A stretch of 27,000 nucleotides of DNA from a virus (Duplodnaviria; Heunggongvirae; Uroviricota; Caudoviricetes). This document shows, piece after piece, positions 2,621-27,000 of the stretch. The notes beneath the pieces are model-generated. The model saw only the letters and a list, made by a program, of their open reading frames with translations. It was not told the DNA's origin and searched no databases. Positions within the stretch are counted from its first letter, which is position 1, and each line of letters starts with the position of its first letter. Location: IMG/VR virus record IMGVR_UViG_640753024_000008; one strand, given 5' to 3'. A program made the translations under genes and the position numbers.

Positions 2621-3211
2621 ATGTCTCGAATTTTTGCTTACTGTCGGATATCAACGCTGGATCAGACCACCGAAAATCAACGCCGGGAAATCGAAAGTGC
2701 AGGTTTTAAAATCAAACCTCAGCAAATAATCGAAGAACACATTAGCGGCTCAGCAGCAACCAGTGAGCGTCCTAGTTTTAACCGGTTGCTTGCTCGCCTG
2801 AAATGTGGTGATCAATTGATTGTGACAAAACTGGATCGCCTTGGTTGTAATGCAATGGATATCAGGAAAACAGTGGAACAACTGACCGAAACAGGTATCA
2901 GAGTGCATTGCTTAGCATTGGGGGGCATTGACCTGACCAGTCCAACAGGAAAAATGATGATGCAAGTAATTTCAGCAGTCGCTGAATTTGAACGAGACCT
3001 TTTACTTGAACGCACTCATTCCGGGATAGTAAGAGCCCGGGGCGCAGGGAAACGTTTTGGTCGACCACCTGTGTTAAATGAAGAACAGAAACAGGTGGTA
3101 TTCGAACGAATTAAGTCAGGTGTAAGTATAAGTGCCATTGCCCGGGAATTCAAAACCTCGCGGCAAACCATTTTAAGAGCCAAAGCAAAACTTCAGACAC
3201 CTGACATATAA
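2621..3211 (+). CDS. pinQ: serine recombinase / DNA invertase (Pin family)
   Basis: 196 aa with an N-terminal resolvase/invertase catalytic region (YCRISTLDQ...) and a C-terminal helix-turn-helix; adjacent to tail-fibre genes as in Gin/Pin/Cin inversion systems. Confidence 0.9.
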
Positions 3212-3308
3212 AAAATAATCTCGGTGTGAGATGCTTTACGTCTTCCAAGCCACCTTCCTTGCCGTAAATGGAAAGATACATCTAATTATAGAATTTATAT
3301 GTTTTACC

Positions 3309-3884
3309 CTACGGCAGTGCTGGCCATTCAATATCCTGTGCAGTTGACGTATCAACACGGTTCAGCAATACCCGATACTTTTTCCATGCTTCCAGCAACG
3401 AGATTTCTTCCTCCGTTGCAATTTCCAGATCTGCAGCATCCTGAAGCGGCGCAATATGCTCACTGGCTACCTGCATCAGGCTGTTTTTTGTTTCTTCCGC
3501 CTCCCGGATCCGGAACAGTTTTTCTGCTTCCGTATCCTTCACCCAGGCTGTGCCGTTCCACTTCTGATATTCCCCTCCCGGCGATAACCAGGTAACATTT
3601 TCCGGTAACGGACCGAGTTCAGAAATAAATAACGCGTCGCCGGAAGCCACGTCATAAACCGTTTTACCCCGATGATCTTCAACGAGATGCCACGATGCCT
3701 CATCACTGTTGAAAACAGCCACGAAGCCTGCCGGAATATCTGGCGGTGCAATATCGATACTGTTTGCTGGCAGACCTGTATGAGGCGGAATATATGCGTC
3801 ACCTTCACCAATAAATTCATTAGTTCCGGCCAGCAGATTATAAATTTTTATGGTCCGTGGTTGTTCACTCATTCTGAATGCCAT
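3309..3884 (-). CDS. tfaQ: tail fibre assembly protein
   Basis: 191-aa ORF immediately downstream of, and translationally coupled (TAATG) to, the side-tail-fibre C-terminal ORF; typical Tfa size and position. Confidence 0.8.
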
Positions 3885-4600
3885 TATGCAAGCCTCACAA
3901 TATAGTTAAATGCGATGTTTTTGACGGTGTTTTCCGCGTTACCAGCAGCGTTAACGGTGATGGTATGTCCATGTGAACCAATCGCAACGGAGTGCGTATG
4001 AGCACCAATACCGACAGTATGTGCGTGTGCACCTGCGCTTGCAGCAGTACCCGATACAGAGTGCGTATGAGCGCCTGCAGAAGAAGTGTTAACACTGTAT
4101 TTAGAATAATCCGACGACGACATAATGTTGACCGAGGGCCAACCAATTTTAAGGAACGAGCCATCCCTGAACGTCTTATCATGGACATTATTGTCGTTAC
4201 GACGTGGACTCATTCTTTTCTTTACCGCCGCACTGCTTCTAAACGTTCTGTCGAGGCGCTTTTTAGAATGCTCGCGGGCCTTATCTTCGGTCATCTGCAC
4301 AACGAGCATGTCCGAAGGATCGCAAACGATGGTATAGACAATCCATCCATCGATCAGACCAATGGTCTTCCCTGTTCGCGCAGGACCAACAAAAATCACC
4401 GCATCGTATTCACGCGATGCCAGGCAGTTCATGGGCTCAATGATGTAGGGTGTCAGTTCAGGATCCCATGGCACCGAGTTACCAGCCCCCTTGGGAACAC
4501 GCATGAATTTTTTAACAGCCTCCGAAATCGGCATGCGACGTGGTGGGGAAAATCCTGCCGATATGTCCCTTCCCAAATTTCGGGCTGATGAAAAACCCAT
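3884..4600 (-). pseudogene. chimeric ORF: terminase large subunit N-terminal fragment fused in frame to a side-tail-fibre C-terminus
   Basis: N-terminal 150 or so residues resemble the GpA-type terminase N-terminus ([15 protein letters not shown]..., P-loop-like GPARTGKT). The C-terminal 70 or so residues are a repetitive Gly/His/Thr-rich tail-fibre tip (SAGAHTHSV...GSHGHTITV). The head and tail genes that should lie between are absent. Confidence 0.6.
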
Positions 4601-4608
4601 TATTCCTC

Positions 4609-4864
4609 CTAGAGACTCTCTCCTTCCTCATCAGGAATTAATTCAGCAGCACAAGCCTCGTAGGATTTTTCCTGAAGAGTGTATCGCAGGTCATCAATTG
4701 CCTGCTGTACAACGCCGACGGCCTGAGGAGTCAGGGCGCAATCGCGTTCAAGAACATCCGGAATTGTCTCCAGAACCTGGACGACAGCCTTTCTCATGGA
4801 CGAATAGACGATGACTACTTCATCAACGGGGATGAGTTTTCGCTGCTCCTTTTCCAGCTTGATC
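4609..4864 (-). pseudogene. terminase small subunit-like remnant, 5' end removed by the IS66 insertion
   Basis: The reading frame of ORF 4609..4797 stays open upstream right up to the IS66 terminal repeat at about 4865. Sits directly upstream of the terminase large-subunit fragment. Family assignment is by position only. Confidence 0.35.
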
Positions 4865-4894
4865 GTAAGCGACTCGTCAGAACCGTATTGATAT

Positions 4895-6466
4895 TTACTG
4901 AGAGCTCAGATCAACTTTCCAGGGCAACAGATCGCGTACCCGGTTTGCCGGCCAGTCCTGGATATGTTCAATGACGTAACGCAGCCACTTTTCTGACTCC
5001 ACATTGTTCAGACGGCATGTGCCGATCAGCGAGTACAACACCGCCGCATGTTCACCACCGCTGTCGGAACCCGCGAACATCCAGTTTTTCCGGCCTACGG
5101 CCACTCCCCGTAAGGCGTTCTCTGCGATGTTGTTGTCGATTTCCACCCAGCCATTACTGCAGTACACGTTCAGTGCATCCCACTGTTTCAGCAGGTATGC
5201 GAACGCTTTTGCCGTATCTGAGTGACGCGACAGTGTTTTCATCTGTTGCTGTATCCAGTCATACAGTGACTGCATCAGTGGCGCGGCTCTGGCTTTTCTT
5301 GCCGCCAGACGCTGTTCTGCTGAACAGCCCCGGACCTCTGCCTCGATGGCATACAGTTCACCGATACGCTGCAGGGCTTCCGTGGTGATGTAGGTGGGCG
5401 CTCTTGCATGCACATCGTGGATTTTTCTCCGGACATGAGCCATACACGCGGCTTCCGTTATTCTGCCGGATTCGTATAACGCCCGGTAACCACCGTAAGC
5501 ATCGGCCTGAAGCACACCGCTGTAACCGGCCAGGTGATTTTGTGGATGGATACCTTTCCGGTCCGGACTGTACGCGAACCAGACCGCCGGGGGCATCTGT
5601 GAACCGGCGTTACGGTCATCACGGACGTAGACCCACAGCCGGGCTGTCCGGGTTTTACCGCTGCCCGGCTCCTGGACCGGGACGGGGATATCATCAGCAT
5701 GGACTTTACCGGGCATCAGCACATACTGGCGCAGGACGTCATACAGCGGCTCCAGCAGTTCAGCAACAGCACCTGTCCAGCGCCCCAGTGTGGCACGGCT
5801 CAGCTCCACTCCCTGACGACGGTATATTTCTGACTGGCGGTATAACGGCAGATGGTCTGCATATTTCCCGGTGACAACATGGGCCAGAAGCCCCGCTCCG
5901 GCATAACTGCGTGCAATGGGTTTTGAAGGTACTGGTGCCTGCACGATATGGTCGCACCGGCAACAGGCCTGTTTCGGACGTTGTGTTTCGATAACCTTAA
6001 AGGCGCTGCTGATAAGCTCCAGTTGCTCTGACACATCACATCCCAGAGAACTGAGTTCACCACCACAGGCAGGACAGCATTCCTCTTCCGGCCGGATAAC
6101 CCGGGTTTCACGGGGAAGTGAGGCCGGTAACGGTTTACGGGCTGAAGACTGGCGCAGGGCGGATGGCAGTACCGGGTCATATTGCTCACCCAGCGTTTCC
6201 GCCATTTCTTCCTGAAGTGCGCTGATTCGCTCCTGTGCTTCCTGTATCTGCCGTTCGGTTTTTGCACGAAGTTTTTCTGAGCTTTTACCGAACTGCATAC
6301 GTTGCAGTTTCGCAACCAGCGCCTTCAGCCGGTTGATTTCGGAAGCATAAGCCGCCACCCGCTGTGAGAGCAGGCGGTTGTATTCAGCCATCTGGCGTAT
6401 GGTGTCCTGTTGCGTCTGCAACAGTGCCCGCAGGCGGGCGTTCTCATGAGCAAGTGAGGTGTCCAT
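4895..6466 (-). CDS. IS66-family transposase TnpC
   Basis: 523 aa with an N-terminal coiled-coil/leucine-zipper region, a Cys-rich zinc-ribbon (CPACG...CRCDH) and the conserved IS66 TnpC core. Confidence 0.9.
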
Positions 6467-6485
6467 ATCCTCACTTTACAACGGG

Positions 6486-6833
6486 TTATATGCGGATTCC
6501 AGCGCGTTCCGTTCGTTTCGGGTGCTTCCAGTTGATACCTTCAAGAAGCATGGATAACTGAGCCGGAGTAAGGTGCACCTTGCCGTCACGGGTGACTGGC
6601 CAGACGAAGCGGCCCCGCTCCAGGCGTTTGGTGAAGAGGCACAGTCCGTCACTGTCAGCCCACAACACTTTTATCTGGTCACCCCGGCGTCCGCGGAAGA
6701 TGAACAGGTGTCCGGAGAACGGGTCATCCTTCAGGACGTTCTGAACTTTTGATGCCAGGCCGTTAAAGCCATTTCGCATATCGGTGATACCTGCAACCAG
6801 CCAGATACGCGAACCTGCAGGGAGAGATATCAT
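6486..6833 (-). CDS. IS66 accessory protein TnpB (orfB)
   Basis: 115 aa, [20 protein letters not shown]... motif typical of IS66 orfB; overlaps orfA by 1 nt. Confidence 0.9.
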   Translation of the reverse strand: MISLPAGSRIWLVAGITDMRNGFNGLASKVQNVLKDDPFSGHLFIFRGRRGDQIKVLWADSDGLCLFTKRLERGRFVWPVTRDGKVHLTPAQLSMLLEGINWKHPKRTERAGIRI

Positions 6834-7297
6834 CAGTGGCTGCTCCCTTTTATTTCGCGGATAAGTGTCTGTAATAACGCCGGCGTCAGTTTACCTTTAA
6901 GCCTGAGAGTTCCGGCCGGCAGAACCAGCTCACAACACAGACTGTCGGACGGTGTATTTATCTGCTCTGGTTCCTGTGCGGGGGCCGGGATTTTATTATC
7001 CGGCTCCGGCGTTAACGTCACGGGAAGCAGTGCCGGCATATTTTTTCCGGAAGGCAGCAGGCCACCTTTCCGGTATTGATGGCGCCAGTTGAAGAGCAGG
7101 TTATCGTTGATTCCGTTTTCCCGGGCGATCTGCGCCACACAGGCTCCGGGCTGCAGTGACTGCTCCACTAAGGCGATTTTAAACTCATAAGGGAAGTTGG
7201 GCCGCCGGGGACGTTTTTTTACCACGGGGGCTTCGGATATAACGGTGCTTTCAGGACGTACGACTGGTATCGTGGAAAATTGGTAAGCGTGCAGCAA
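6833..7297 (-). CDS. IS66 orfA (true start unresolved)
   Basis: Homologous to copy-2 orfA (PEFK...GINDNLLFNWR). The called start is a TTG that lies inside the terminal repeat of the neighbouring element, so the real start is further downstream. Confidence 0.6.
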   Translation of the reverse strand: MLHAYQFSTIPVVRPESTVISEAPVVKKRPRRPNFPYEFKIALVEQSLQPGACVAQIARENGINDNLLFNWRHQYRKGGLLPSGKNMPALLPVTLTPEPDNKIPAPAQEPEQINTPSDSLCCELVLPAGTLRLKGKLTPALLQTLIREIKGSSH

Positions 7298-7319
7298 GAA
7301 CCGTATTGACGGGGATGTG

Positions 7320-8858
7320 TTATTCAGTCGGCAGTGCTACGCGCCAGGGGAGCAGTTCGCCGACCCGGTTTATCGGCCAGTCGGCTATGACGTCAAGGAC
7401 ATAGCGGAGGTAGCTTTCTGGCTCCACTCCGTTCAGTTTGCACGTCCCGATCAGGCTGTACAGCAGCGCTCCCCGCTCTCCTCCATGATCCGAACCGAAG
7501 AACAGGTAGTTTTTGCGGCCCAGACTGACCATCCGCAACGCATTTTCAGCGATGTTATTGTCCGCCTCAGCCCAGCCATCATCTGCATAGTACGTCAGCG
7601 CCGGCCACTGGTTCAGGGCGTATGCGAACGCTTTCGCCAGTTCTGAGTGTCGCGACAGGGTTTTCATCTTTTCACGCAACCAGCTTTCCAGGGATTTCAA
7701 CAGCGGTTTCGTTTTTCGCTGACGTTCAGCAAGCCGCTGCTCTGCCGGCATTCCCCTTATATCCGCCTCTATGGCGTACAACTGACCGATCTGCTCCAGG
7801 GCTTCTTCCGTCAGTGCTGACGGGATGCGGACGTGCACATCGTGGATCTTTCGGCGGGCATGAGCCCAGCAGGCAGCTTCCGTTATCCCACCATTGCGAT
7901 ACAGCTCGTTGAACCCGGCGTACGCATCCGCTTGCAGCACACCGCTGAAGCAGGCAAGATGAGTCTGCGGATGGATGCCTTTTCTGTCCGGGCTGTAAGC
8001 GAACCACACTGCAGGTGCCAACGCTGACCCGGCATTGCGGTCATCACGAACATACGCCCACAACCGCCCGGTCTTCGTCTTCTTATTACCCGGCAGCAGT
8101 ACCTGGACCGGGGTATCATCGGCATGGAGTTTGCCGTCAGTCATGACATAGCCATGAAGCGCCTCTTCCAGCGGAGACAGCAGCCGGCAGCATGCATCCA
8201 CCCAGCCCGACAGCAGTGAACGGCTCAGCTCCACACCTTGCCGGCCGTATATTTCTGACTGGCGATACAGCGGGGTGTGCTCTGCATACTTCGAGGTCAG
8301 CACGCGGGCCAGCAGCCCCGGTCCGGCGATACCCCGCTCGATGGGCCGCGAAGGTGCAGGTGCCTGCACGATGGCATCGCACTGAGTACAGGCATGTTTT
8401 TCCCGTACCGTCCGGATAACCCGGAAGGCACTACGCATCAACTCCAGCTGTTCGGCGGTATCCTCGCCCAGATAGCTCAGTGAACCGCCGCAGTTCGGGC
8501 AGCACGGCGCCGCAGGCAACAGTCGCTTTTCGTCACGGGGTAGTGATTCAGGGAACGGCTTACGGGTGCGGGTCTGACGCAACGGACGCTGTACAGCCGG
8601 GTCATACACCCTACCAGTCAGCGTATCGCTCTCTTTCTGAAGCCGGTTCAGATCGGCTTCCATTTGTGCGATACGGCGGGAGACTTTTTCGGAACGACTG
8701 CCGAAGTTCATCCGGCGGAGTTTATCCAGCTGCGCCTGCAGATGGTCTATTTCGCGCTCCCAGTTGCTCAGCTTTTCCTGCAGGGCGTGGATCAGCGCTT
8801 CCTGTTCGGCCAGGCGCTGTTTCAGCAGGAAGATGTCGTCAGAAGAGATGTCGTTCAT
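7320..8858 (-). CDS. IS66-family transposase TnpC
   Basis: 512 aa, same architecture as copy 1 but clearly divergent in sequence. Confidence 0.9.
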
Positions 8859-8907
8859 AAGCCCGTATTTTACCGGGCTTATTCTGTGACAACCAGGATA
8901 AAGAGAT

Positions 8908-9255
8908 TTACAGCATGGTCAGGGAGGTCAGCAACCGCTTGGGCTGTCGCCAGTCGATACCTTCCAGCAGCATCGCCAGCTGCGCCTGCGTAAGGAACAC
9001 TTTGCCATCACGGGCTGACGGCCAGGCGAAGCGCCCACGCTCCAGCCGTTTGGTCAGGAGGCACAGTCCGTCACCGGTGGACCACAGCAGTTTAACCTGA
9101 CTGCCGCTGCGGCCCCGGAAAATGAAAACATGGCCGGACATGGGATCGTCTTTCAGCGCCGTTTGTACTTTCGCAGCCAGGCCGTTGAAGCCATTTCTCA
9201 TATCGGTGATACCGGCAACCAGCCAAATTTTGGTCCCGGAAGGTAACGGGATCAT
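8908..9255 (-). CDS. IS66 accessory protein TnpB (orfB)
   Basis: 115 aa, [20 protein letters not shown]... Confidence 0.9.
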
Positions 9256-9653
9256 CGCTTCAGTTCCTGTATCAGCAGAGTCAGGAGCTTTTCGCTGACA
9301 TTGCCATTGAAGCGGAGCGTCCCGTGCCGGAACGTTACCTCACAGCTGATACTGAGGGTTTCCGGGTCCTCTGCGAGCGATTCTGGCTGTTCGGCAGCTG
9401 CATCGAGAGTCACAGGAAGTAGCTGGGGGCTCTCTGAAGAAGGTAATAGCAGCTTTCCCTCGCGCCATTGTTGTCGCCATTTGAACAACAGATTGGCGTT
9501 AATGCCATTTTCAAGAGCAAGTTTTGAGATGGATATCCCGGGTTCACAGGAGGCAGCAACGAGCTGCTGTTTAAATTCGGGAGGATAATTAGGGCAGCCT
9601 TTTCGCCTGCCGGGAGTCACATTTTTCTGCATATCTGACACTTTGGTTCCCAC
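9252..9653 (-). CDS. IS66 orfA
   Basis: 133 aa, overlaps orfB by 4 nt; helix-turn-helix-like GINANLLFKWR motif. Confidence 0.8.
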   Translation of the reverse strand: MGTKVSDMQKNVTPGRRKGCPNYPPEFKQQLVAASCEPGISISKLALENGINANLLFKWRQQWREGKLLLPSSESPQLLPVTLDAAAEQPESLAEDPETLSISCEVTFRHGTLRFNGNVSEKLLTLLIQELKR

Positions 9654-9679
9654 TACTTATTTGGTGGACACCACTTTGT

Positions 9680-9922
9680 CTAATTTGTCAGATTCTGACC
9701 AGACGGTTCAGGCTGTACGCTTACCTTACGCCTGTCTTCTTTAATCTTGAAATAAAGATTTGTCAGATACGTCAGCAGGCCAAAAACCAGGCTACCCAGC
9801 ACACCGATTGCAGCCCACTGTGACGGAGTTACTTTATCGAGTAACTGCAATGCCCAGAAACCAGCATTACCCGCCGATGTGCCATAGGCAACACCTGTTG
9901 TTAACTTATCCATTGATTTCAT
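9680..9922 (-). CDS. essQ: phage-21-type class II holin with dual-start motif; native C-terminus replaced by IS66-derived codons
   Basis: [31 protein letters not shown]...[16 protein letters not shown] matches the S21 holin family (recalled). GGTGAGGAT ribosome-binding site before the first Met. The last native codon, Lys, ends exactly at the IS66 copy-2 boundary at 9724/9725. Confidence 0.75.
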
Positions 9923-16806: not shown

Positions 16807-17432
16807 CCTTTGCGCTCCTGAACATGTAACAAAATATGATTCGCATTATAAGATTTTTTAATGTTTAGCCGAAGAGTTTTTTGCATGAGTTATGACATAA
16901 GTTTAGTTCGTAGTTCTGCGATATAGTTTTCTCCTGAAAACAAAAAACATCTGGGGCATGAGGTGAGCTCCGAAAGTTGGACATCTCAACGATTATGTCA
17001 AGAGCGTCTACTGGGACGTGGTCTGTGTAAACGGTCACTCCTAGTACAAAGCAGACAACAATGCCAGTTTTAATCTAATCCTATACAACAGAAATGTCAT
17101 TTCACATTTGAACTAATGCACTTTAATATCGTTACTTCAAAATGCTGAACATTTCCCTGATAAAACGCCAGTATGCGTTGCATCACTTCGCTCTTCCGGC
17201 ACTCGCGACAGATTATGTTTAGACGACTGTCGTAGCGACGTATTTCTCCGTCAGGTAATGACCAGATAAGGTCCGGATCAACCACAGCAGGTTTCTTCAC
17301 CTTTGCCCTCGAGAGTTTTTTGCGGGCGTTTTGCCAGTCCTTACGCGCCTGTTCAGACGGGAATAACTGATCTTACCCAGCAATAGTGGACACGCGGCTA
17401 AGTGAGTAAACTCTCAGTCAGAGGTGACTCAC

Positions 17433-17732
17433 ATGACAAAAACAGTATCAACCAGTAAAAAACCCCGTAAACAGCATTCGCCTGAATTTCGCAGTGAAGC
17501 CCTGAAGCTTGCTGAACGCATCGGTGTTACTGCCGCAGCCCGTGAACTCAGCCTGTATGAATCACAACTCTACAACTGGCGCAGTAAACAGCAAAATCAG
17601 CAGACGTCTTCTGAACGTGAACTGGAGATGTCTACCGAGATTGCACGTCTCAAACGCCAGCTGGCAGAACGGGATGAAGAGCTGGCTATCCTCCAAAAGG
17701 CCGCGACATACTTCGCGAAGCGCCTGAAATGA
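17433..17732 (+). CDS. insE: IS3 OrfA (helix-turn-helix protein)
   Basis: [32 protein letters not shown]... recalled IS3 InsE sequence; the ORF track begins 3 codons earlier at a GTG. Confidence 0.9.
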
Positions 17733-18505
17733 AGTACGTCTTTATTGAAAAACATCAGGCTGAGTTCAGCATCAAAGCAATGTGCCGCGTGCTCCGGGTG
17801 GCCCGCAGCGGCTGGTATACGTGGTGTCAGCGGCGGACAAGGATAAGCACGCGTCAGCAGTTCCGCCAACACTGCGACAGCGTTGTCCTCGCGGCTTTTA
17901 CCCGGTCAAAACAGCGTTACGGTGCCCCACGCCTGACGGATGAACTGCGTGATCAGGGTTACCCCTTTAACGTAAAAACCGTGGCGGCAAGCCTGCGCCG
18001 TCAGGGACTGAGGGCAAAGGCCTCCCGGAAGTTCAGCCCGGTCAGCTACCGCGCACACGGCCTGCCTGTGTCAGAAAATCTGTTGGAGCAGGATTTTTAC
18101 GCCAGTGGCCCGAACCAGAAGTGGGCAGGAGACATCACGTACTTACGTACAGATGAAGGCTGGCTGTATCTGGCAGTGGTCATTGACCTGTGGTCACGTG
18201 CCGTTATTGGCTGGTCAATGTCGCCACGCATGACGGCGCAACTGGCCTGCGATGCCCTGCAGATGGCGCTGTGGCGGCGTAAGAGGCCCCGGAACGTTAT
18301 CGTTCACACGGACCGTGGAGGCCAGTACTGTTCAGCAGATTATCAGGCGCAACTGAAGCGGCATAATCTGCGTGGAAGTATGAGCGCAAAAGGTTGCTGC
18401 TACGATAATGCCTGCGTGGAAAGCTTCTTTCATTCGCTGAAAGTGGAATGTATCCATGGAGAACACTTTATCAGCCGGGAAATAATGCGGGCAACGGTGT
18501 TTTAA
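17729..18505 (+). CDS. insF: IS3 OrfB (DDE transposase), C-terminally truncated by a frameshift
   Basis: 258 aa ending ...REIMRATVF. The expected last 30 or so residues ([30 protein letters not shown]) are in the +1 frame after a run of four T at about 18500..18503. Confidence 0.85.
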
Positions 18506-20620: not shown

Positions 20621-21028
20621 ATGGATACAAAAAATTTAACCATCGGCGAACGCATTAGGTATCGTCGGAAAAACCTCAAACACACCCAAAGGTCTCTTGC
20701 TAAAGCCCTGAAAATCTCCCATGTGTCTGTATCACAATGGGAACGGGATGATAGTGAACCTACAGGGAAGAACCTTTTTGCCCTCAGCAAAGTATTGCAA
20801 TGCTCACCAACATGGATTCTATTTGGCGATGAAGACAAGCAACCAACACCACCTGTTGAGAAGCCGGTTGCCTTAGCCCCCAAAGAACTAGAGCTCCTTG
20901 AGCTGTTTAATGCACTGCCAGAATCAGAACAGGATACCCAGCTCGCCGAAATGCGAGCTCGAGTAAAAAATTTCAATAAACTCTTTGAAGAATTACTAAA
21001 AGCCCGTCAGCGGACAAATAAAAGATAA
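20621..21028 (+). CDS. dicA: repressor DicA (helix-turn-helix, cI-like)
   Basis: 135 aa, MDTKNLTIGERIRYRRKNLKHTQRSLAKALKISHVSVSQWER... with helix-turn-helix. Confidence 0.9.
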   Translation: MDTKNLTIGERIRYRRKNLKHTQRSLAKALKISHVSVSQWERDDSEPTGKNLFALSKVLQCSPTWILFGDEDKQPTPPVEKPVALAPKELELLELFNALPESEQDTQLAEMRARVKNFNKLFEELLKARQRTNKR

Positions 21029-21098
21029 CATCATCAATGAGTTATCTTTTATTATATCAATTGTGTTAGCCATAACATACAAAATCACTTGACCAATA

Positions 21099-21115
21099 TG
21101 TTAGTCATGGCTAAT
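21099..21115. promoter_or_regulatory. second copy of the operator-like motif (TGTTAGTCATGGCTAAT), upstream of ydfA
   Basis: 16 of 17 nt identical to the site at 20553..20570; a related half-site TGTTAGCCATAACA lies at about 21063..21076. Confidence 0.45.
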
Positions 21116-21194
21116 CTAGTTTACATCAACACACCGCACGGTGTTCTCAGCAAACAGTTCCGCCACCCCGGCGTTAAGGGGAAATGAGGTCAGC

Positions 21195-21350
21195 ATGGAT
21201 ACTATCGATCTTGGCAACAGCGAATCTCTGGTATGTGGCGTGTTCCCCAACCAGGACGGCACGTTCACCGCGATGACGTATACCAAAAGCAAAACGTTTA
21301 AAACCGAAAATGGTGCCCGTCGCTGGCTGGAAAGAAACTCAGGTGAGTGA
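21195..21350 (+). CDS. ydfA: small prophage protein YdfA (51 aa)
   Basis: Internal ATG of ORF 21141..21350 with GAGG ribosome-binding site; MDTIDLGNSESLVCGVFPNQDGTFTAMTYTKSKTFKTENGARRWLERNSGE. Confidence 0.8.
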   Translation: MDTIDLGNSESLVCGVFPNQDGTFTAMTYTKSKTFKTENGARRWLERNSGE

Positions 21351-21351
21351 T

Positions 21352-21927
21352 ATGGATTTCGACACAATCATGGAAAAGGCTTACGAAGAATACTTCGAAG
21401 GCCTTGCCGAAGGCGAAGAAGCTCTCAGCTTCAGTGAGTTTAAACAGGCACTCAGAATAAGAATGTGCTCTCACAATGACGCGGAGCACAAATATGAGAA
21501 GCAAAATCAGACCGCAGAAAATTTTGTTCTGGAACCCGGAGAAACGCTTTTCAAAATTCCCGTTACGTGCCCCATTTGCGGTTTTACATCAGAAGAACTT
21601 GACGACTCCTGTAACAATCAGGAAACAACCAAGTATGTCGAAGATGATACCGAGTGCGCACGAAGAACGATTATATCCACGAGTCCAAACTCCAGGACCA
21701 ATAAATCTCACCTTGAGAGGGTGATTAATCCACTCCCCCAAACCAATAAAAAAGATGCCGGAGGACAAAAAACCCAATGGAACAACGGGATATCTGTCAA
21801 AAAAAGACGTTCCATTAAAGACAAACAACGCAGCGCCAACAACTGTAAGCGCTTTATACCAGTAATCAATTTTCATGTTCTTAAGCGGATTTATTGGTGG
21901 TTGCGACATTGCTTAATGAATCCTTAA
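21352..21927 (+). CDS. continuous ORF across the ydfB/ydfC region (191 aa from MDFDT)
   Basis: Starts 2 nt after the ydfA stop. The N-terminal part is acidic with a CPICG motif; the C-terminal 90 or so residues are low-complexity and overlapped by an antisense membrane-like ORF. The coding extent is uncertain. Confidence 0.45.
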   Translation: MDFDTIMEKAYEEYFEGLAEGEEALSFSEFKQALRIRMCSHNDAEHKYEKQNQTAENFVLEPGETLFKIPVTCPICGFTSEELDDSCNNQETTKYVEDDTECARRTIISTSPNSRTNKSHLERVINPLPQTNKKDAGGQKTQWNNGISVKKRRSIKDKQRSANNCKRFIPVINFHVLKRIYWWLRHCLMNP

Positions 21928-22186
21928 AACTGTGGTGATTTTAAGGATACCACCTCGCCTGACGTGGTTAAAAGCAGGCACACAACACGAAAGCGCACGG
22001 CGAAGTTCGTCTCACTGTACGGTGTCGTTAAATTTAATTCGACCGTGCGCTTCCGGTTGTGGCAACCCGCGAAATGGCGCGGCGGTAAGTATGGCGGGGT
22101 TATTCCTTCCCCGTTGAGGACACCGAGTTGTCAGGTTGACCATACGCTTAAGTGACAACCCCGCTGCAACGCCCTCTGTTATCAAT

Positions 22187-22244
22187 TTTCTGGTGACGTT
22201 TGGCGGTATCAGTTTTACTCCGTGACTGCTCTGCCGCCGTTTTT
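22187..22244 (+). ncRNA. dicF: DicF small regulatory RNA
   Basis: TTTCTGGTGACGTTTGGCGGTATCAGTTTTACTCCGTGACTGCTCTGCCGCC followed by TTTTT, matching the recalled DicF sequence almost exactly, in the expected place just before dicB. Confidence 0.85.
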
Positions 22245-22413
22245 AAAGTGAATTTTGTGATGCGGTGAATGCGGCTAAGCGCACGCGGAACAGTTAAAAC
22301 CAAAAACAGTGTTATGGGTGGATTCTCTGTATCCGGCGTTAATTGTTAACTGGTTAACGTCACCTGGAGGCACCAGGCACTGCATCACAAAATTCATTGT
22401 TGAGGACGCGATA

Positions 22414-22602
22414 ATGAAAACGTTATTACCAAACGTTAATACGTCTGAAGGTTGTTTTGAAATTGGTGTCACTATCAGTAACCCTGTATTTACTGAAGAT
22501 GCCATTAACAAGAGAAAACAAGAACGGGAGCTATTAAATAAAATATGCATTGTTTCAATGCTGGCTCGTTTACGTCTGATGCCAAAAGGATGTGCACAAT
22601 GA
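22414..22602 (+). CDS. dicB: cell-division inhibitor DicB (62 aa)
   Basis: MKTLLPNVNTSEGCFEIGVTISNPVFTEDAINKRKQERELLNKICIVSMLARLRLMPKGCAQ; the ATG is internal to ORF 22309..22602. Confidence 0.9.
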   Translation: MKTLLPNVNTSEGCFEIGVTISNPVFTEDAINKRKQERELLNKICIVSMLARLRLMPKGCAQ

Positions 22603-22790
22603 ATTCAGCATTTGCGCTTGTTCTGACAGTTTTTCTTGTTTCCGGAGAGCCAGTTGATATTGCAGTCAGTGTTCACAGGACAATGCAGGAGTGTATGACT
22701 GCAGCAACCGAACAGAAAATTCCCGGTAACTGTTACCCGGTCGATAAAGTTATTCACCAGGATAATATCGAAATCCCGGCAGGTCTTTAA
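22599..22790 (+). CDS. ydfD: YdfD (63 aa, N-terminal membrane helix)
   Basis: ATGA overlap with the dicB stop; MNSAFALVLTVFLVSGEPV... Confidence 0.85.
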   Translation: MNSAFALVLTVFLVSGEPVDIAVSVHRTMQECMTAATEQKIPGNCYPVDKVIHQDNIEIPAGL

Positions 22791-22883: not shown

Positions 22884-25361
22884 ATGAGTAAAGTCTTTAT
22901 TTGCGCCGCTATTCCTGACGAACTGGCAACAAGGGAAGAAGGCGCTGTGGCTGTGGCTGTAGCCACAGCCATTGAAGCTGGCGACGAACGCCGTGCTCGA
23001 GCAAAATTTCACTGGCAGTTCCTGGAACATTATCCGGCTGCTCAGGACTGCGCTTATAAATTTATTGTCTGCGAGGATAAACCTGGCATACCCCGCCCTG
23101 CCCTCGATTCATGGGATGCTGAATATATGCAGGAAAACCGCTGGGATGAGGAGTCTGCTTCTTTTGTCCCGGTTGAGACTAAATCCGATCCGATGAACGT
23201 CACTTTTGACAAGCTGGCCCCTGAAGTACAGAACGCTGTCATGGTTAAGTTCGACACATGTGAAAACATCACCGTTGATATGGTTATTAGCGCACAGGAA
23301 TTGTTGCAGGAAGACATGGCAACATTCGACGGACATATCGTTGAAGCGTTGATGAAAATGCCAGAAGTTAACGCCATGTATCCGGAGCTTAAGTTGCACG
23401 CCATTGGGTGGGTTAAGCATAAATGTATTCCTGGTGCTAAATGGCCCGAAATTCAGGCAGAGATGCGCATCTGGAAAAAACGTCGCGAAGGTGAACGCAA
23501 GGAAACCGGAAAATACACGTCTGTTGTTGATCTCGCCCGCGCCAAAGCCAATCAACAGTACACTGAAAATTCAACAGGAAAAATCAGCCCGGTCATTGCT
23601 GCCATTCATCGCGAATACAAGCAGACATGGAAAACACTGGATGACGAACTGGCCTACGCTCTCTGGCCTGGTGATGTGGATGCCGGAAACATTGACGGCA
23701 GCATCCGTCGCTGGGCAAAAAAAGAAGTTATCGACAACGACCGCGAAGACTGGAAGCGTATCTCGGCATCAATGCGCAAACAGCCTGATGCCCTTCGCTA
23801 CGACCGCCAAACTATTTTTGGCCTTGTCCGTGAGCGTCCGATCGACATTCACAAAGATCCCGTAGCACTGAACAAATATATCTGCGAATACCTGACGACA
23901 AAGGGCGTGTTTGAGAATGAAGAAACAGACCCGGGCACTGTTGATGTTCTCCAGTCATCAGAAACACAAACTGATGCAGTGGAAACTGAGGTATCTGATA
24001 TCCCAAAAAATGAAACCGCGCCGGAAGCTGAACCATCTGTAGAGCGTGAGGGGCCGTTCTATTTCCTCTTCGCAGATAAGGACGGAGAAAAATACGGTCG
24101 CGCAAACAAACTTTCTGGTCTGGATAAGGCACTGGCTGCTGGCGCCACTGAAATCACAAAAGAAGAATATTTTGCCCGAAAAAATGGCACATACACGGGC
24201 TTACCGCAAAATGTAGATACCGCTGAAGATTCAGAACAACCAGAACCGATAAAAGTTACCGCTGACGAAGTAAACAAAATTATGCAGGCAGCCAATATCA
24301 GCCAGCCTGACGCCGATAAGTTGCTTGCTGCATCACGTGGTGAATTTGTTGAAGGGATTAGCGACCCGAATGATCCGAAATGGGTTAAGGGGATCCAGAC
24401 CCGCGATTCTGTGAACCAGAACCAGCAAGAAACGGAACAGAACGACCAGAAAGCGGAACAAAACAGCCCAAATACGCAACAAAACGAGCCAGAAACGAAA
24501 CAACCTGAACCAGTAGTGCAACAGGAACCGGAAAAGATCTGCACCGCCTGCGGTCATAGCGGTGGCGGCAACTGCCCTGATTGTGGTGCGGTGATGGGTG
24601 ACGCAACATACCAGGAAATATTCGATGGAGAGAATCAGCCTGAAGTTCAGGAAAATGATCCGGAGGAAATGGAAGGCACTGCGCATCAGCACAAGGAGAA
24701 CACTGGCGGCAATCAGCATCACAATAGCGATAATGAAACTGGCGAGACGGCAGATCACTCAATTAAGGTGAACGGTCATCACGAAATCACATCCACCAGC
24801 AGGACGTGTGACCATCTAATGATCGACCTTGAAACCATGGGAAAAAATCCTGATGCCCCGATCATCTCAATAGGTGCAATATTTTTCGATCCGCAAACCG
24901 GAGATATGGGACCGGAATTTAGTAAGACTATCGATCTGGAAACTGCTGGCGGAGTCATTGATCGGGACACCATTAAATGGTGGCTTAAGCAATCACGCGA
25001 AGCGCAATCTGCCATTATGACCGATGAAATCCCGTTAGATGATGCACTGTTACAATTGCGGGAATTTATCGACGAAAACTCCGGTGAATTTTTTGTTCAT
25101 GTCTGGGGAAATGGAGCCAACTTCGACAACACGATTTTGCGCCGTTCATACGAACGGCAGGGAATCCCCTGCCCGTGGCGTTACTACAACGATCGCGATG
25201 TACGCACAATCGTTGAGCTGGGGAAAGCCATAGACTTCGATGCCAGAACGGCTATTCCATTCGAAGGTGAGCGCCATAATGCACTTGATGACGCCCGTTA
25301 CCAGGCAAAATACGTTTCAGCTATCTGGCAAAAACTGATCCCGAGTCAGGCTGATTCTTAA
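22884..25361 (+). CDS. ydfE: YdfE-like 825-aa protein: N-terminal domain, acidic linker with CxxC-x9-CxxC zinc ribbon, C-terminal DEDDh (DnaQ-like) 3'-5' exonuclease
   Basis: C-terminal motifs MIDLETMG (Exo I), HVWGNGANFDNTIL (Exo II) and ERHNALDDARYQAKY (Exo III). Zinc ribbon CTACGHSGGGNCPDCG. Position between ydfD and xis/int matches ydfE. Confidence 0.75.
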   Translation: MSKVFICAAIPDELATREEGAVAVAVATAIEAGDERRARAKFHWQFLEHYPAAQDCAYKFIVCEDKPGIPRPALDSWDAEYMQENRWDEESASFVPVETKSDPMNVTFDKLAPEVQNAVMVKFDTCENITVDMVISAQELLQEDMATFDGHIVEALMKMPEVNAMYPELKLHAIGWVKHKCIPGAKWPEIQAEMRIWKKRREGERKETGKYTSVVDLARAKANQQYTENSTGKISPVIAAIHREYKQTWKTLDDELAYALWPGDVDAGNIDGSIRRWAKKEVIDNDREDWKRISASMRKQPDALRYDRQTIFGLVRERPIDIHKDPVALNKYICEYLTTKGVFENEETDPGTVDVLQSSETQTDAVETEVSDIPKNETAPEAEPSVEREGPFYFLFADKDGEKYGRANKLSGLDKALAAGATEITKEEYFARKNGTYTGLPQNVDTAEDSEQPEPIKVTADEVNKIMQAANISQPDADKLLAASRGEFVEGISDPNDPKWVKGIQTRDSVNQNQQETEQNDQKAEQNSPNTQQNEPETKQPEPVVQQEPEKICTACGHSGGGNCPDCGAVMGDATYQEIFDGENQPEVQENDPEEMEGTAHQHKENTGGNQHHNSDNETGETADHSIKVNGHHEITSTSRTCDHLMIDLETMGKNPDAPIISIGAIFFDPQTGDMGPEFSKTIDLETAGGVIDRDTIKWWLKQSREAQSAIMTDEIPLDDALLQLREFIDENSGEFFVHVWGNGANFDNTILRRSYERQGIPCPWRYYNDRDVRTIVELGKAIDFDARTAIPFEGERHNALDDARYQAKYVSAIWQKLIPSQADS

Positions 25362-25433: not shown

Positions 25434-25685
25434 ATGAGCGAAGTAATCATGATTGTCTCTCCCGGCAAATGGGTATCCGAAGAGCAGTTAATTGCGCTGA
25501 AAGGAATAAAAAAAGGTACGTTAAAAAAGGCCCGGGAAAAATCGTTTATGGAAGGAAGGGAATATAAGCATGTCGCTCATGACGGTATGCCATGGGATAA
25601 CAGTCCATGCTTTTACAACCTGGAAGAAATTGATCGCTGGATTGAGCGCCAGGCATCAGCAAGACCAAGACGTCATCTTACTTGA
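25434..25685 (+). CDS. excisionase-like protein (83 aa)
   Basis: Small basic protein immediately upstream of the integrase; the family is inferred from position and size only. Confidence 0.5.
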   Translation: MSEVIMIVSPGKWVSEEQLIALKGIKKGTLKKAREKSFMEGREYKHVAHDGMPWDNSPCFYNLEEIDRWIERQASARPRRHLT

Positions 25686-25719
25686 CTAAAAGCCACACTA
25701 ACTAATGAGAGAAGTTGAA

Positions 25720-27000
25720 ATGAAATATCCGACAGGCGTGGAAAACCATGGAGGGAAATTACGTATCTGGTTTGTTTATAAAGGCGTAAGAGTCAGGGAA
25801 AACCTGGGGGTTCCTGACACAGCAAAAAACAGGCGCGTTGCAGGTGAGCTACGCGCCTCTGTTTGTTACGCAATAAAAACTGGTGTTTTCGACTATGCAA
25901 AACAGTTTCCCTCCTCACGCAATCTGGAAAAATTTGGTGAGGCCCGACAAGATTTAACCATAAAAGAACTGGCTGAAAAATTTCTGGCACTGAAAGAAAC
26001 TGAAGTCGCAAAAACATCACTCAACACATACCGTGCCGTCATCAAAAATATCCTGAGCATAATCGGTGAAAAAAATCTTGCCTCATCGATTAATAAAGAA
26101 AAATTACTGGAGGTTCGTAAAGAGCTACTGACTGGATACCAGATCCCCAAAAGTAACTATATTGTTACACAACCAGGGAGATCGGCTGTAACTGTAAATA
26201 ATTACATGACAAATCTTAACGCCGTGTTCCAGTTTGGTGTTGATAACGGTTACCTGGCAGATAACCCGTTTAAGGGGATCTCGCCATTAAAGGAATCAAG
26301 AACCATTCCGGATCCTCTTTCGCGGGAGGAATTTATCCGTCTTATCGATGCGTGCAGAAATCAGCAAGCAAAAAATTTATGGTGTGTTTCTGTTTATACT
26401 GGCGTTCGCCCTGGTGAGCTGTGTGCACTTGGATGGGAGGACATAGATCTGAAAAATGGAACAATGATGATCAGGAGAAATTTAGCAAAAGATCGTTTCA
26501 CGGTACCAAAAACACAGGCGGGAACCAATCGGGTCATTCATCTTATTAAGCCAGCAATCGACGCTCTCCGGAGTCAGATGACATTAACGAGACTGAGCAA
26601 AGAGCATATCATTGATGTTCACCTCAGAGAGTATGGCAGAACAGAAAAACAAAAATGCACCTTTGTTTTTCAACCTGAAGTGTCAGCGAGAGTAAAAAAT
26701 TATGGTGACCATTTTACCGTTGACTCAATAAGGCAGATGTGGGACGCAGCGATAAAACGTGCCGGACTCCGCCATCGAAAATCATATCAGTCGAGACATA
26801 CTTATGCCTGCTGGTCGCTGACAGCTGGTGCTAACCCGGCATTTATAGCAAACCAGATGGGCCATGCAGATGCGCAAATGGTATTTAAGGTATACGGAAA
26901 ATGGATGTCTGAAAACAATAATGCACAGGTAGCTTTGTTAAATACACAGTTAAGCGAGTTTGCCCCAACCATGCCCCATAACGAAGCAATGAAAAATTAA
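25720..27000 (+). CDS. intQ: tyrosine integrase (phage integrase family), apparently full length
   Basis: ORF track 25705..27000; the ATG at 25720 has a GAGAAG ribosome-binding site. C-terminal catalytic region with R...HxxR...Y context (RHRKSYQSRHTYACW...HADAQMVFKVY). Stop at 26998..27000. Confidence 0.85.
   Translation: MKYPTGVENHGGKLRIWFVYKGVRVRENLGVPDTAKNRRVAGELRASVCYAIKTGVFDYAKQFPSSRNLEKFGEARQDLTIKELAEKFLALKETEVAKTSLNTYRAVIKNILSIIGEKNLASSINKEKLLEVRKELLTGYQIPKSNYIVTQPGRSAVTVNNYMTNLNAVFQFGVDNGYLADNPFKGISPLKESRTIPDPLSREEFIRLIDACRNQQAKNLWCVSVYTGVRPGELCALGWEDIDLKNGTMMIRRNLAKDRFTVPKTQAGTNRVIHLIKPAIDALRSQMTLTRLSKEHIIDVHLREYGRTEKQKCTFVFQPEVSARVKNYGDHFTVDSIRQMWDAAIKRAGLRHRKSYQSRHTYACWSLTAGANPAFIANQMGHADAQMVFKVYGKWMSENNNAQVALLNTQLSEFAPTMPHNEAMKN

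Follow-up and report, generated by a model that had tools for sequence, protein, structure and literature searches.

Why would a lambdoid prophage carry, in the slot beside its excisionase and integrase genes that a Red or RecET recombination module usually holds, a large protein with a predicted exonuclease of the opposite polarity and no annealase to go with it? The question is raised by a 27,000-nucleotide stretch of the IMG/VR virus record IMGVR_UViG_640753024_000008 (the whole stretch analysed, hereafter the window), which is an Escherichia coli lambdoid prophage of the Qin type, now decayed. The open reading frame (ORF) concerned, listed with an ATG start and 825 amino acids (aa) and preceded by GAGG about 10 nucleotides (nt) 5' of the ATG, is an intact allele of ydfE. 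Judged from alignments and domain content, the gene is best read as a recE whose nuclease head has been exchanged: the middle of the protein is related to RecE, and a DEDDh-type 3'-5' exonuclease domain is placed where RecE has its 5'-3' nuclease. This identity and architecture can be put forward with high confidence.

The kinship with RecE, which on the evidence of a BLASTP alignment the initial annotation overlooked, lies in the middle of the protein. Residues 280-627 align with residues 293-591 of K-12 RecE (expectation value, E, 2e-58), and identity is about 80% across residues 465-627, a stretch that includes the same four-cysteine (Cys4) knuckle. The PD-(D/E)XK head of RecE (residues 600-866) gave no alignment to the ydfE-type protein, and the Pfam family of the RecE N-terminus (PF06630, Exonuc_VIII), present for example in the sister proteins P0123 and P0126, has no match in it at E ≤ 1. 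The NCBIfam model of RecE (PRK09709) reaches 277 bits against a cut-off of 1269, over the central region only and best over residues 455-627. Since the N-terminal 220 residues and the head are unrelated to RecE, the name "exodeoxyribonuclease VIII" found on some phage records is wrong for the catalytic part. PHROG 2082, "exonuclease", on the other hand, matches the protein over its full length with 1811 bits.

What stands in the place of the RecE nuclease? Pfam family PF16473 (the Rv2179c-like 3'-5' exoribonuclease domain) matches residues 644-815 with 225.6 bits (cut-off 27; E 4.6e-67), spanning positions 2-177 of the 177 in the profile, and the three DEDDh motifs to which the initial annotation had drawn attention (DLETMG, WGNGANFD and HNALDDARYQAKY) are all inside this match. 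In an alignment of T4 DexA and seven family members, D648, E650, D748, H798 and D803 are invariant and fall on DexA D7, E9, D119, H186 and D191, corresponding to the D-x-E of Exo I, the Asp of Exo II and the H-x4-D of Exo III (the roles of the DexA residues are from PMC12153337, where the second catalytic residue is printed as E12). The DEDDh residues thus coincide with the catalytic positions of a DnaQ-like enzyme, and the assignment to the polarity class opposite to the 5'-3' PD-(D/E)XK nucleases was well founded. In the AlphaFold model the head has a predicted local distance difference test score (pLDDT) of 80-93; this and the other structure predictions were built from shallow alignments of 12-20 sequences. 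Foldseek places T4 DexA (8kel) first, with an E value of 7e-10, and then RNase T, further neighbors being a Cas2-fused DnaQ domain, Orn and REXO2 (DexA, RNase T, Cas2-DnaQ and Orn all with probability 1.00). DexA is also the sole match in a phmmer search of the PDB (E 6e-6), and Rv2179c was absent both from those matches and from the Foldseek top 50. The active site and the fold together predict a metal-dependent 3'-5' exonuclease. One divergent long form, P0137, has Lys for the catalytic Glu (DLKTMG) and Ala for the Exo II Asp (SFAN), and its head is probably inactivated. An internal start at M646, which would yield a stand-alone head, was considered and is unconvincing; the sole AGGA lies about 14 nt upstream.

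The remainder of the protein consists of a platform and a long flexible stretch (Table 1). The first 220 residues are without catalytic motifs and without a counterpart in RecE, and fold searches with the platform gave nothing recognizable. The helical domain that follows is found in nearly all long family members and is modeled with a pLDDT of about 90 over residues 245-340. The corresponding families, YdfE_N (PF27430) and YdfE_C (PF27432), are known from precomputed annotations rather than from scoring of the window protein itself; P0001, a cluster representative with 91% identity, carries both, together with PF16473. Residues 346-640 are acidic and predicted to be disordered. The linker is acidic as first described, with a combined Asp and Glu fraction of 0.19-0.24, and Gln/Asn-rich (0.20 for residues 465-640). 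Of the zinc ribbon that had been proposed within it, the Cys4 sequence CTACGHSGGGNCPDC is present and its four cysteines are conserved in 120 of 120 clusters at 90% identity, with varying residues between them. The ribbon assignment fared less well: the Pfam zinc-ribbon (DZR) match is weak (E 0.14), the stretch has a pLDDT below 50 (AlphaFold, 12-sequence alignment), and the knuckle is confined to the E. coli-type tether, that of RecE included, and is not family-wide. At the same place, and irrespective of the head, other lineages have the motif G-x-G-x-F-S-[IV]-[DE]-x-L-[MV] (seen in P0130, P0133, P0137, P0138, P0152, P0154, P0190 and P0240, alignment columns ~940-960), which looks like a docking motif for some partner.

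How far does the exchange of heads extend? Domain maps were drawn from the 11,783 hits that a family search returned among 1.84 billion cluster representatives. Two alternative N-terminal modules, YdfE_N and the Exonuc_VIII module of RecE, both lead into the common helical domain and tether, and four alternative heads occur at the C-terminus: DEDDh, the PD-(D/E)XK of RecE, a Rad52-like type and the type of P0130. The DEDDh head is found with YdfE_N, as in the window protein, or with the RecE N-terminus (P0123, P0126, P0133, P0138 and others), and the PD-(D/E)XK head with the RecE N-terminus, as in RecE itself, or with YdfE_N (P0139). P0123 is a composite of the two parents, consisting of RecE 1-592 (88% identity) followed by the DEDDh head. 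Its gene comprises recE nt 1-1772 (92%) and ydfE-type nt 1453-2478 (94%), and it lies in a Rac-like prophage, directly ahead of xis-int and without recT. At the DNA level, the match of the window gene to K-12 recE is confined to nt 1431-1873 (77%), within the tether, and P0123 switches parent there as well. The conserved tether is thus the crossover patch through which heads and platforms are exchanged.

The third head, the C-terminal ~300 residues of P0136, P0151, P0152, P0190 and P0240, has Rad52_Rad22 as its top Pfam match, below threshold (E 0.002-0.025). Its stand-alone homologues are numerous (41-65% identity, E 1e-53 to 1e-93), and some carry PF04098 or bear the name "Rad52/Rad22 family DNA repair protein". 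When the PDB was searched with a profile of this head, no Rad52 structure came up. From the subthreshold match and the annotated or named homologues it is read as a Rad52-like annealase, and a Sipho_Gp157 gene follows and overlaps the gene that encodes it (loci L176 5001-7226 and L177 5001-7361). There seems to be no earlier description of an annealase tethered to a platform of the RecE type. The fourth head (P0130 residues 445-702; loci L009-L011 6001-8109) matches only PHROG 26058, which has no assigned function; it gave no Pfam or PDB match, and no RecT gene follows it. Two of the three other heads, the RecE nuclease and the Rad52-like domain, are DNA-recombination modules, and this ties the platform to recombination.

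Is an annealase encoded anywhere near the DEDDh head? The seeds for the search were RecT of K-12 and a second RecT, λ Redβ, P22 Erf, λ Exo, λ Gam and P22 Abc2. In the window, tblastn at E ≤ 1e-3 detected no homologue of RecT, Redβ, Erf, λ Exo or Gam (all positive controls were found), in agreement with the initial annotation, and neither an annealase nor λ Exo or Gam was found in the window together with 86 close loci (1.0 Mb, the complete phage HannyBb included). A set of 80 contig loci, taken at one genome per species and mostly from Enterobacterales with some Vibrio, includes 24 long DEDDh forms, and none of these has RecT, Redβ or Erf within 10 kb (Sak4, Gp2.5 and UvsX types were not searched). 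At RecE-type heads, by contrast, RecT overlaps the nuclease gene by 4 nt in 80 of 80 loci, and P0139, with YdfE_N and a PD-(D/E)XK head, has a RecT gene next to it. The absence of an annealase is the rule among the long DEDDh forms. With RecT at every one of the 80 RecE heads and at P0139, and at none of about 110 long DEDDh forms, the annealase tracks the head and not the platform. The 205-aa YdfB-like ORF of the window was considered as a hidden annealase and rejected, as it matches only PHROG 35040 and has no Pfam match.

The surroundings of the exonuclease in other genomes are also informative. In all 25 long forms examined, the window included, an integrase is found within the next three ORFs, and in Rac-like contexts the neighbors are kilR, ydaE and sieB. 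Just upstream of the exonuclease gene, 13 of the 24 long forms from other species have a small Rrf2-family protein (Pfam E 2.7e-15; e.g. L102 8039-8419). About 50 loci encode the head as a stand-alone protein of 180-250 aa, which starts with MNHLMIDLETMG, the residues where the head of the window protein begins. A stand-alone head of about 183 aa is part of same-strand erf-ssb-exo strings, contiguous in four loci (L137 8877-10549, L153 8724-10552, L157 1765-3440 and L159 8754-10549); in a fifth (L134 1575-3802), ssb and exo are separated by one additional ORF. These strings provide an independent link between the exonuclease family and DNA recombination modules. Other stand-alone heads adjoin genes for a dATP/dGTP pyrophosphohydrolase, an HD-domain protein or a DUF2303 protein.

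The gene is neither rare nor decaying. Among 5,426 complete E. coli genomes, 3,536 contain 80% or more of its length, and there it is annotated "exonuclease" or "3'-5' exonuclease", and the top protein cluster at 90% identity has 23,183 member sequences; the initial annotation had called the function unusual, which in terms of frequency it is not. The gene occupies the same position in the phage records Tritos, Evi and HannyBb (complete), mEp460 and PhiR42_1 are also carriers, and DNA identity to the genes of HannyBb, PhiR42_1 and Tritos is 97-98%. In K-12, ydfE is indeed a fragment: 254 of 258 residues (98%) are identical over residues 1-258, where IS2E cuts the gene, and K-12 retains the first 256 residues. 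Complete YdfE-type alleles are 821-826 aa long in 63 of 63 cases, the window protein being two residues longer than most through an extra Ala-Val repeat near the N-terminus, and no disrupted C-terminal ORF was seen among the sampled loci. (The window protein and a minority of alleles end in QADS, most others in QADF.) Over 60 distinct alleles, the ratio of nonsynonymous to synonymous substitution rates (dN/dS) is 0.11 for YdfE_N, 0.26 for the helical domain, 0.39 for the linker, 0.38 for the tether with the knuckle and 0.22 for the head. Every module is under purifying selection, and the gene is functional.

Within the prophage, the gene order is dicC, dicA, ydfA, the YdfB-like ORF, DicF, dicB, ydfD, the ydfE-type gene, xis and int. 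The ydfE-type gene is the final one of the early-left operon, directly ahead of xis and int, in the slot held by RecE/RecT in Rac, and the spacing of 72 bp to the excisionase-like ORF was correctly noted at the outset. In the Qin prophage of K-12, the dicB operon is repressed by DicA. A scan of the window for promoters and terminators found fewer promoter-like sites than in shuffled sequences.

Table 1. Coordinates of the ydfE-type gene, the modules of its product and other features of the window.
Feature	Position	Strand	Basis or remark
Intact ydfE-type gene, RecE-family modular protein with DEDDh 3'-5' exonuclease head	22884..25361	+	ORF; PHROG 2082; identity to K-12 YdfE
YdfE_N platform, aa 1-220	22884..23543	+	alpha/beta domain aa 1-100, helical domain aa 110-205
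Helical domain common to RecE (~RecE 226-370; Pfam YdfE_C), aa 221-345	23544..23918	+	BLASTP module map
Variable acidic linker, aa 346-464	23919..24275	+	Asp + Glu 0.24; weak, gapped RecE alignment
Acidic Gln/Asn-rich tether, aa 465-639, predicted disordered	24276..24800	+	~80% identical to RecE 451-591
Cys4 knuckle, Cys 553, 556, 564 and 567	24540..24584	+	putative zinc site
DEDDh (DnaQ-fold) 3'-5' exonuclease head, aa 640-825	24801..25361	+	Pfam PF16473; catalytic columns; model
C-terminal residues QADS	25350-25361	+
Early-left operon, upstream part: dicA (20621-21028), ydfA, 205-aa YdfB-like ORF, DicF, dicB, ydfD	20621..22790	+
DicF small RNA	22188-22239		same operon; 72.5 bits
dicB	22414-22602	+
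ydfD	22599-22790	+
Excisionase-like gene	25434..25685	+	Pfam DUF1233 putative excisionase, E 1.6e-31
Tyrosine integrase, prophage end	25705..27000	+	rspB next in close relatives
205-aa YdfB-extended ORF	21310-21927	+	PHROG 35040 (no assigned function)
106-aa ORF	21589-21909	-	no family match
AIPR-family gene, 591 aa	15031-16806	-	low-GC island (~35% GC)
Decayed regions	3300-9700 and 17424-18505
Two tandem three-ORF sets of IS66-like sizes	4895-7297 and 7320-9653		judged by size, no family scan
237-aa remnant	3884-4600
IS009 RNA match	3343-3541
Pin-type invertase	2621-3211

Some further features of the prophage may be recorded here. The YdfB-extended ORF lies at the position of K-12 ydfB/ydfC, an approximately 960-bp stretch whose equivalent is left unannotated in RefSeq relatives, and opposite to it is a hydrophobic-looking ORF. 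The AIPR-family (abortive infection) gene is on an island between the hok/sok locus and the replication genes and is a defense moron; some relatives have an AAA ATPase in its place. Decay of the prophage takes the form of truncated structural genes and insertion sequence (IS) insertions, with an IS3-type transposase (rve domain) within the replication region and, among the remnants, a terminase ATPase fragment joined to a tail-fiber repeat.

What might the protein do? It can be pictured in three parts, a non-catalytic platform (residues 1-345) with RecE homology from about residue 222, an acidic and presumably disordered tether of about 300 residues, and the C-terminal DEDDh head. The head would remove single nucleotides from free 3'-OH ends by two-metal catalysis, with D648, E650, D748 and D803 as the predicted metal-site residues and H798 acting as general base. 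Its substrate would most probably be DNA, the platform and tether would carry the head to its site of action, and the protein would act without a dedicated annealase, processing DNA ends or 3' tails. We infer a DNA rather than an RNA substrate because DexA is the closest characterized relative, because recombination heads occur on the same platform and because stand-alone heads are found in erf-ssb operons. Similarly, the location in an operon that DicA represses in K-12 points to expression upon induction and lytic growth. The functions first suggested (recombination, anti-restriction or nucleic acid degradation) span too wide a field to be wrong; of these, the evidence favors recombination or end processing. 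That the protein is a DNA 3'-end-processing enzyme among the recombination or replication functions of the phage, made upon prophage induction, has in our estimation an even chance of being correct.

Several points weigh against this reading. DEDDh sequence alone cannot tell a DNA enzyme from an RNA enzyme; the Pfam family takes its name from an exoribonuclease, and Foldseek puts RNase T and Orn structurally near the head. A 3'-5' exonuclease destroys the very 3' tails that annealases and RecA use, and so a classical single-strand annealing role does not follow. Since the platform has no recognizable fold, a targeting role for it is conjecture. Expression restricted to induction would be borrowed from the K-12 dicB operon, the promoter scan being uninformative, and the annealase search covered RecT, Redβ and Erf seeds only, not the Sak4, Gp2.5 or UvsX types. 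No functional study of a ydfE-type protein was found in the literature, nor any biochemical or genetic data.

Could the protein instead defend the lysogen? As a prophage defense nuclease of the HREX/EcD kind, its head would digest the DNA of superinfecting phages, for example the hydroxymethylcytosine DNA of T-even phages, to the benefit of the lysogen. A stand-alone E. coli homologue of DexA, EcD, is reported to digest T4 DNA and protect cells (PMC12153337). The persistence of an intact gene under purifying selection inside an otherwise decayed prophage, its presence in about 65% of E. coli genomes and the AIPR gene in the same prophage would all fit such a role. However, EcD is a different protein, since the primer sequences in the same paper have it start with MIDTET and end with TIPETYD. 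These termini rule out that EcD is the window protein or its head, and no MIDTET protein was present among the fetched sequences. The residues proposed to recognize 5-hydroxymethylcytosine (5hmC) are not kept either, DexA W152 being Tyr and D169 Ala, while the tetramer residue D90, lost in EcD, is kept as D720. The PADLOC match is marginal and partial (E 0.024), the gene is in a repressor-controlled lytic operon and not in a moron position, and its platform is common to recombination proteins. We regard a defense role as improbable.

Nucleotide scavenging or counter-defense during lytic growth would require no recombination role at all: the head would degrade DNA fragments or oligonucleotides, or small defense single-stranded DNA or RNA, to mononucleotides. 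Degradation of the host chromosome is not known from lambdoid phages, and this argues against scavenging. For DexA, the nearest relative of solved structure, a role in scavenging host DNA is documented (PMC12153337). Virulent phages also carry the family widely (1,631 phage records), and its stand-alone members often adjoin genes for a dATP/dGTP pyrophosphohydrolase or an HD-domain protein. Scavenging nevertheless leaves the 640 residues of platform and tether unexplained, as stand-alone forms of 180 aa would do, and the same platform bears RecE and Rad52-like heads. We regard it as unlikely.

A third possibility is that the head is a 3'-5' exoribonuclease directed at RNA, such as the DicF precursor, transcripts of its own operon or host RNAs. 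The founding member of the Pfam family, Rv2179c of Mycobacterium tuberculosis, is an exoribonuclease, NCBI labels many homologues "3'-5' exoribonuclease", RNase T, Orn and REXO2 are structural neighbors, and DicF is encoded in the same operon. Against this, the nearest solved protein by both sequence and fold is the DNA exonuclease DexA, and the swapped heads and erf-ssb-exo operons represent DNA functions. Long forms also occur in Rac-like contexts, where the protein-coding neighbors are unlike those of the dicB operon (these lists omit RNA genes). We regard an RNA target as quite improbable.

That the gene is a fusion made by sequencing error, as the initial annotation had allowed, or a functionless pseudogene, as the K-12 allele, the degraded prophage and the two catalytic residues lost from P0137 might suggest, is practically excluded by the recurrence of the same ORF in thousands of independent assemblies and in isolated phages, by purifying selection in every module with a constant length of complete alleles, and by the conservation of the catalytic residues and the four cysteines.

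Why should the platform persist through the exchange of heads? A tentative proposal, which we consider doubtful, is that platform and tether constitute a general delivery module that docks to a host or phage site of DNA transactions and accepts heads of different kinds: the 5'-3' nuclease paired with RecT, the 3'-5' nuclease on its own, the Rad52-like annealase accompanied by Gp157, or the fourth head. The DEDDh version would then represent a widespread, annealase-independent pathway for DNA ends, generating 5' overhangs or removing 3' tails, and would take the place of Red/RecET in a sizeable fraction of the lambdoid phages of E. coli.

RecE/RecT is in standard use for recombineering. The persistence of the platform through head exchange turns its role into a testable question and makes the N-terminal two-thirds of RecE approachable; those ~600 residues have no known function beyond boosting linear-linear recombination (reviewed in PMC11611040). 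The family as such is already in the catalogues and very frequent, but we found no description of a RecE relative with a head of opposite polarity, of four-way head swapping or of the strict link between head and annealase. The majority of E. coli genomes carry an intact, selected and uncharacterized predicted 3'-5' exonuclease in the usual Red/RecET slot, which many records mislabel as "exodeoxyribonuclease VIII". Should it represent a new end-processing route or a defense nuclease, the consequences would extend to phage recombination biology and to engineering tools; should it be only a DexA-like scavenger, the finding would be an ordinary one.

How does the ydfE-type protein compare with known systems? 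With λ Exo-Redβ and other two-component recombinases it shares the operon neighborhood in lambdoid phages; unlike these, it has no sequence similarity to them, its head is of the opposite polarity class, and no RecT, Redβ, Erf or Gam was found in the prophage. EcD/HREX (PMC12153337) is likewise a DEDDh exonuclease of the DexA family with its gene in E. coli, but it stands alone at about 200 aa, its defining substitutions are not common to the 825-aa protein, and it has been assayed as a defense gene. Rv2179c belongs to the same Pfam family, the whole profile of which is matched by the window protein, but is a stand-alone bacterial exoribonuclease without phage context, platform or tether. T4 DexA (8KEL/8KEN) is closer: it is the nearest solved protein by sequence and fold, is phage-encoded, is a 3'-5' DNA exonuclease and aligns at all five catalytic residues. 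It differs in its low identity (~25-28%), its stand-alone form of 227 aa with extra loops, the Trp and Asp proposed to recognize 5hmC (Tyr and Ala in the ydfE-type head), and in belonging to a virulent phage that degrades host DNA. RecE (exonuclease VIII) of Rac, with its partner RecT, is a close relative in design. The two differ in their first 220 residues (YdfE_N in one, Exonuc_VIII in the other) and in their heads, and RecT follows RecE and not the ydfE-type gene. On the other hand, they occupy the same slot at the end of the early-left operon beside xis-int, are of similar length (866 and 825 aa), and share a homologous helical domain (residues 222-345 of the window protein) and a tether with the same Cys4 knuckle, and natural hybrids of the two genes exist.

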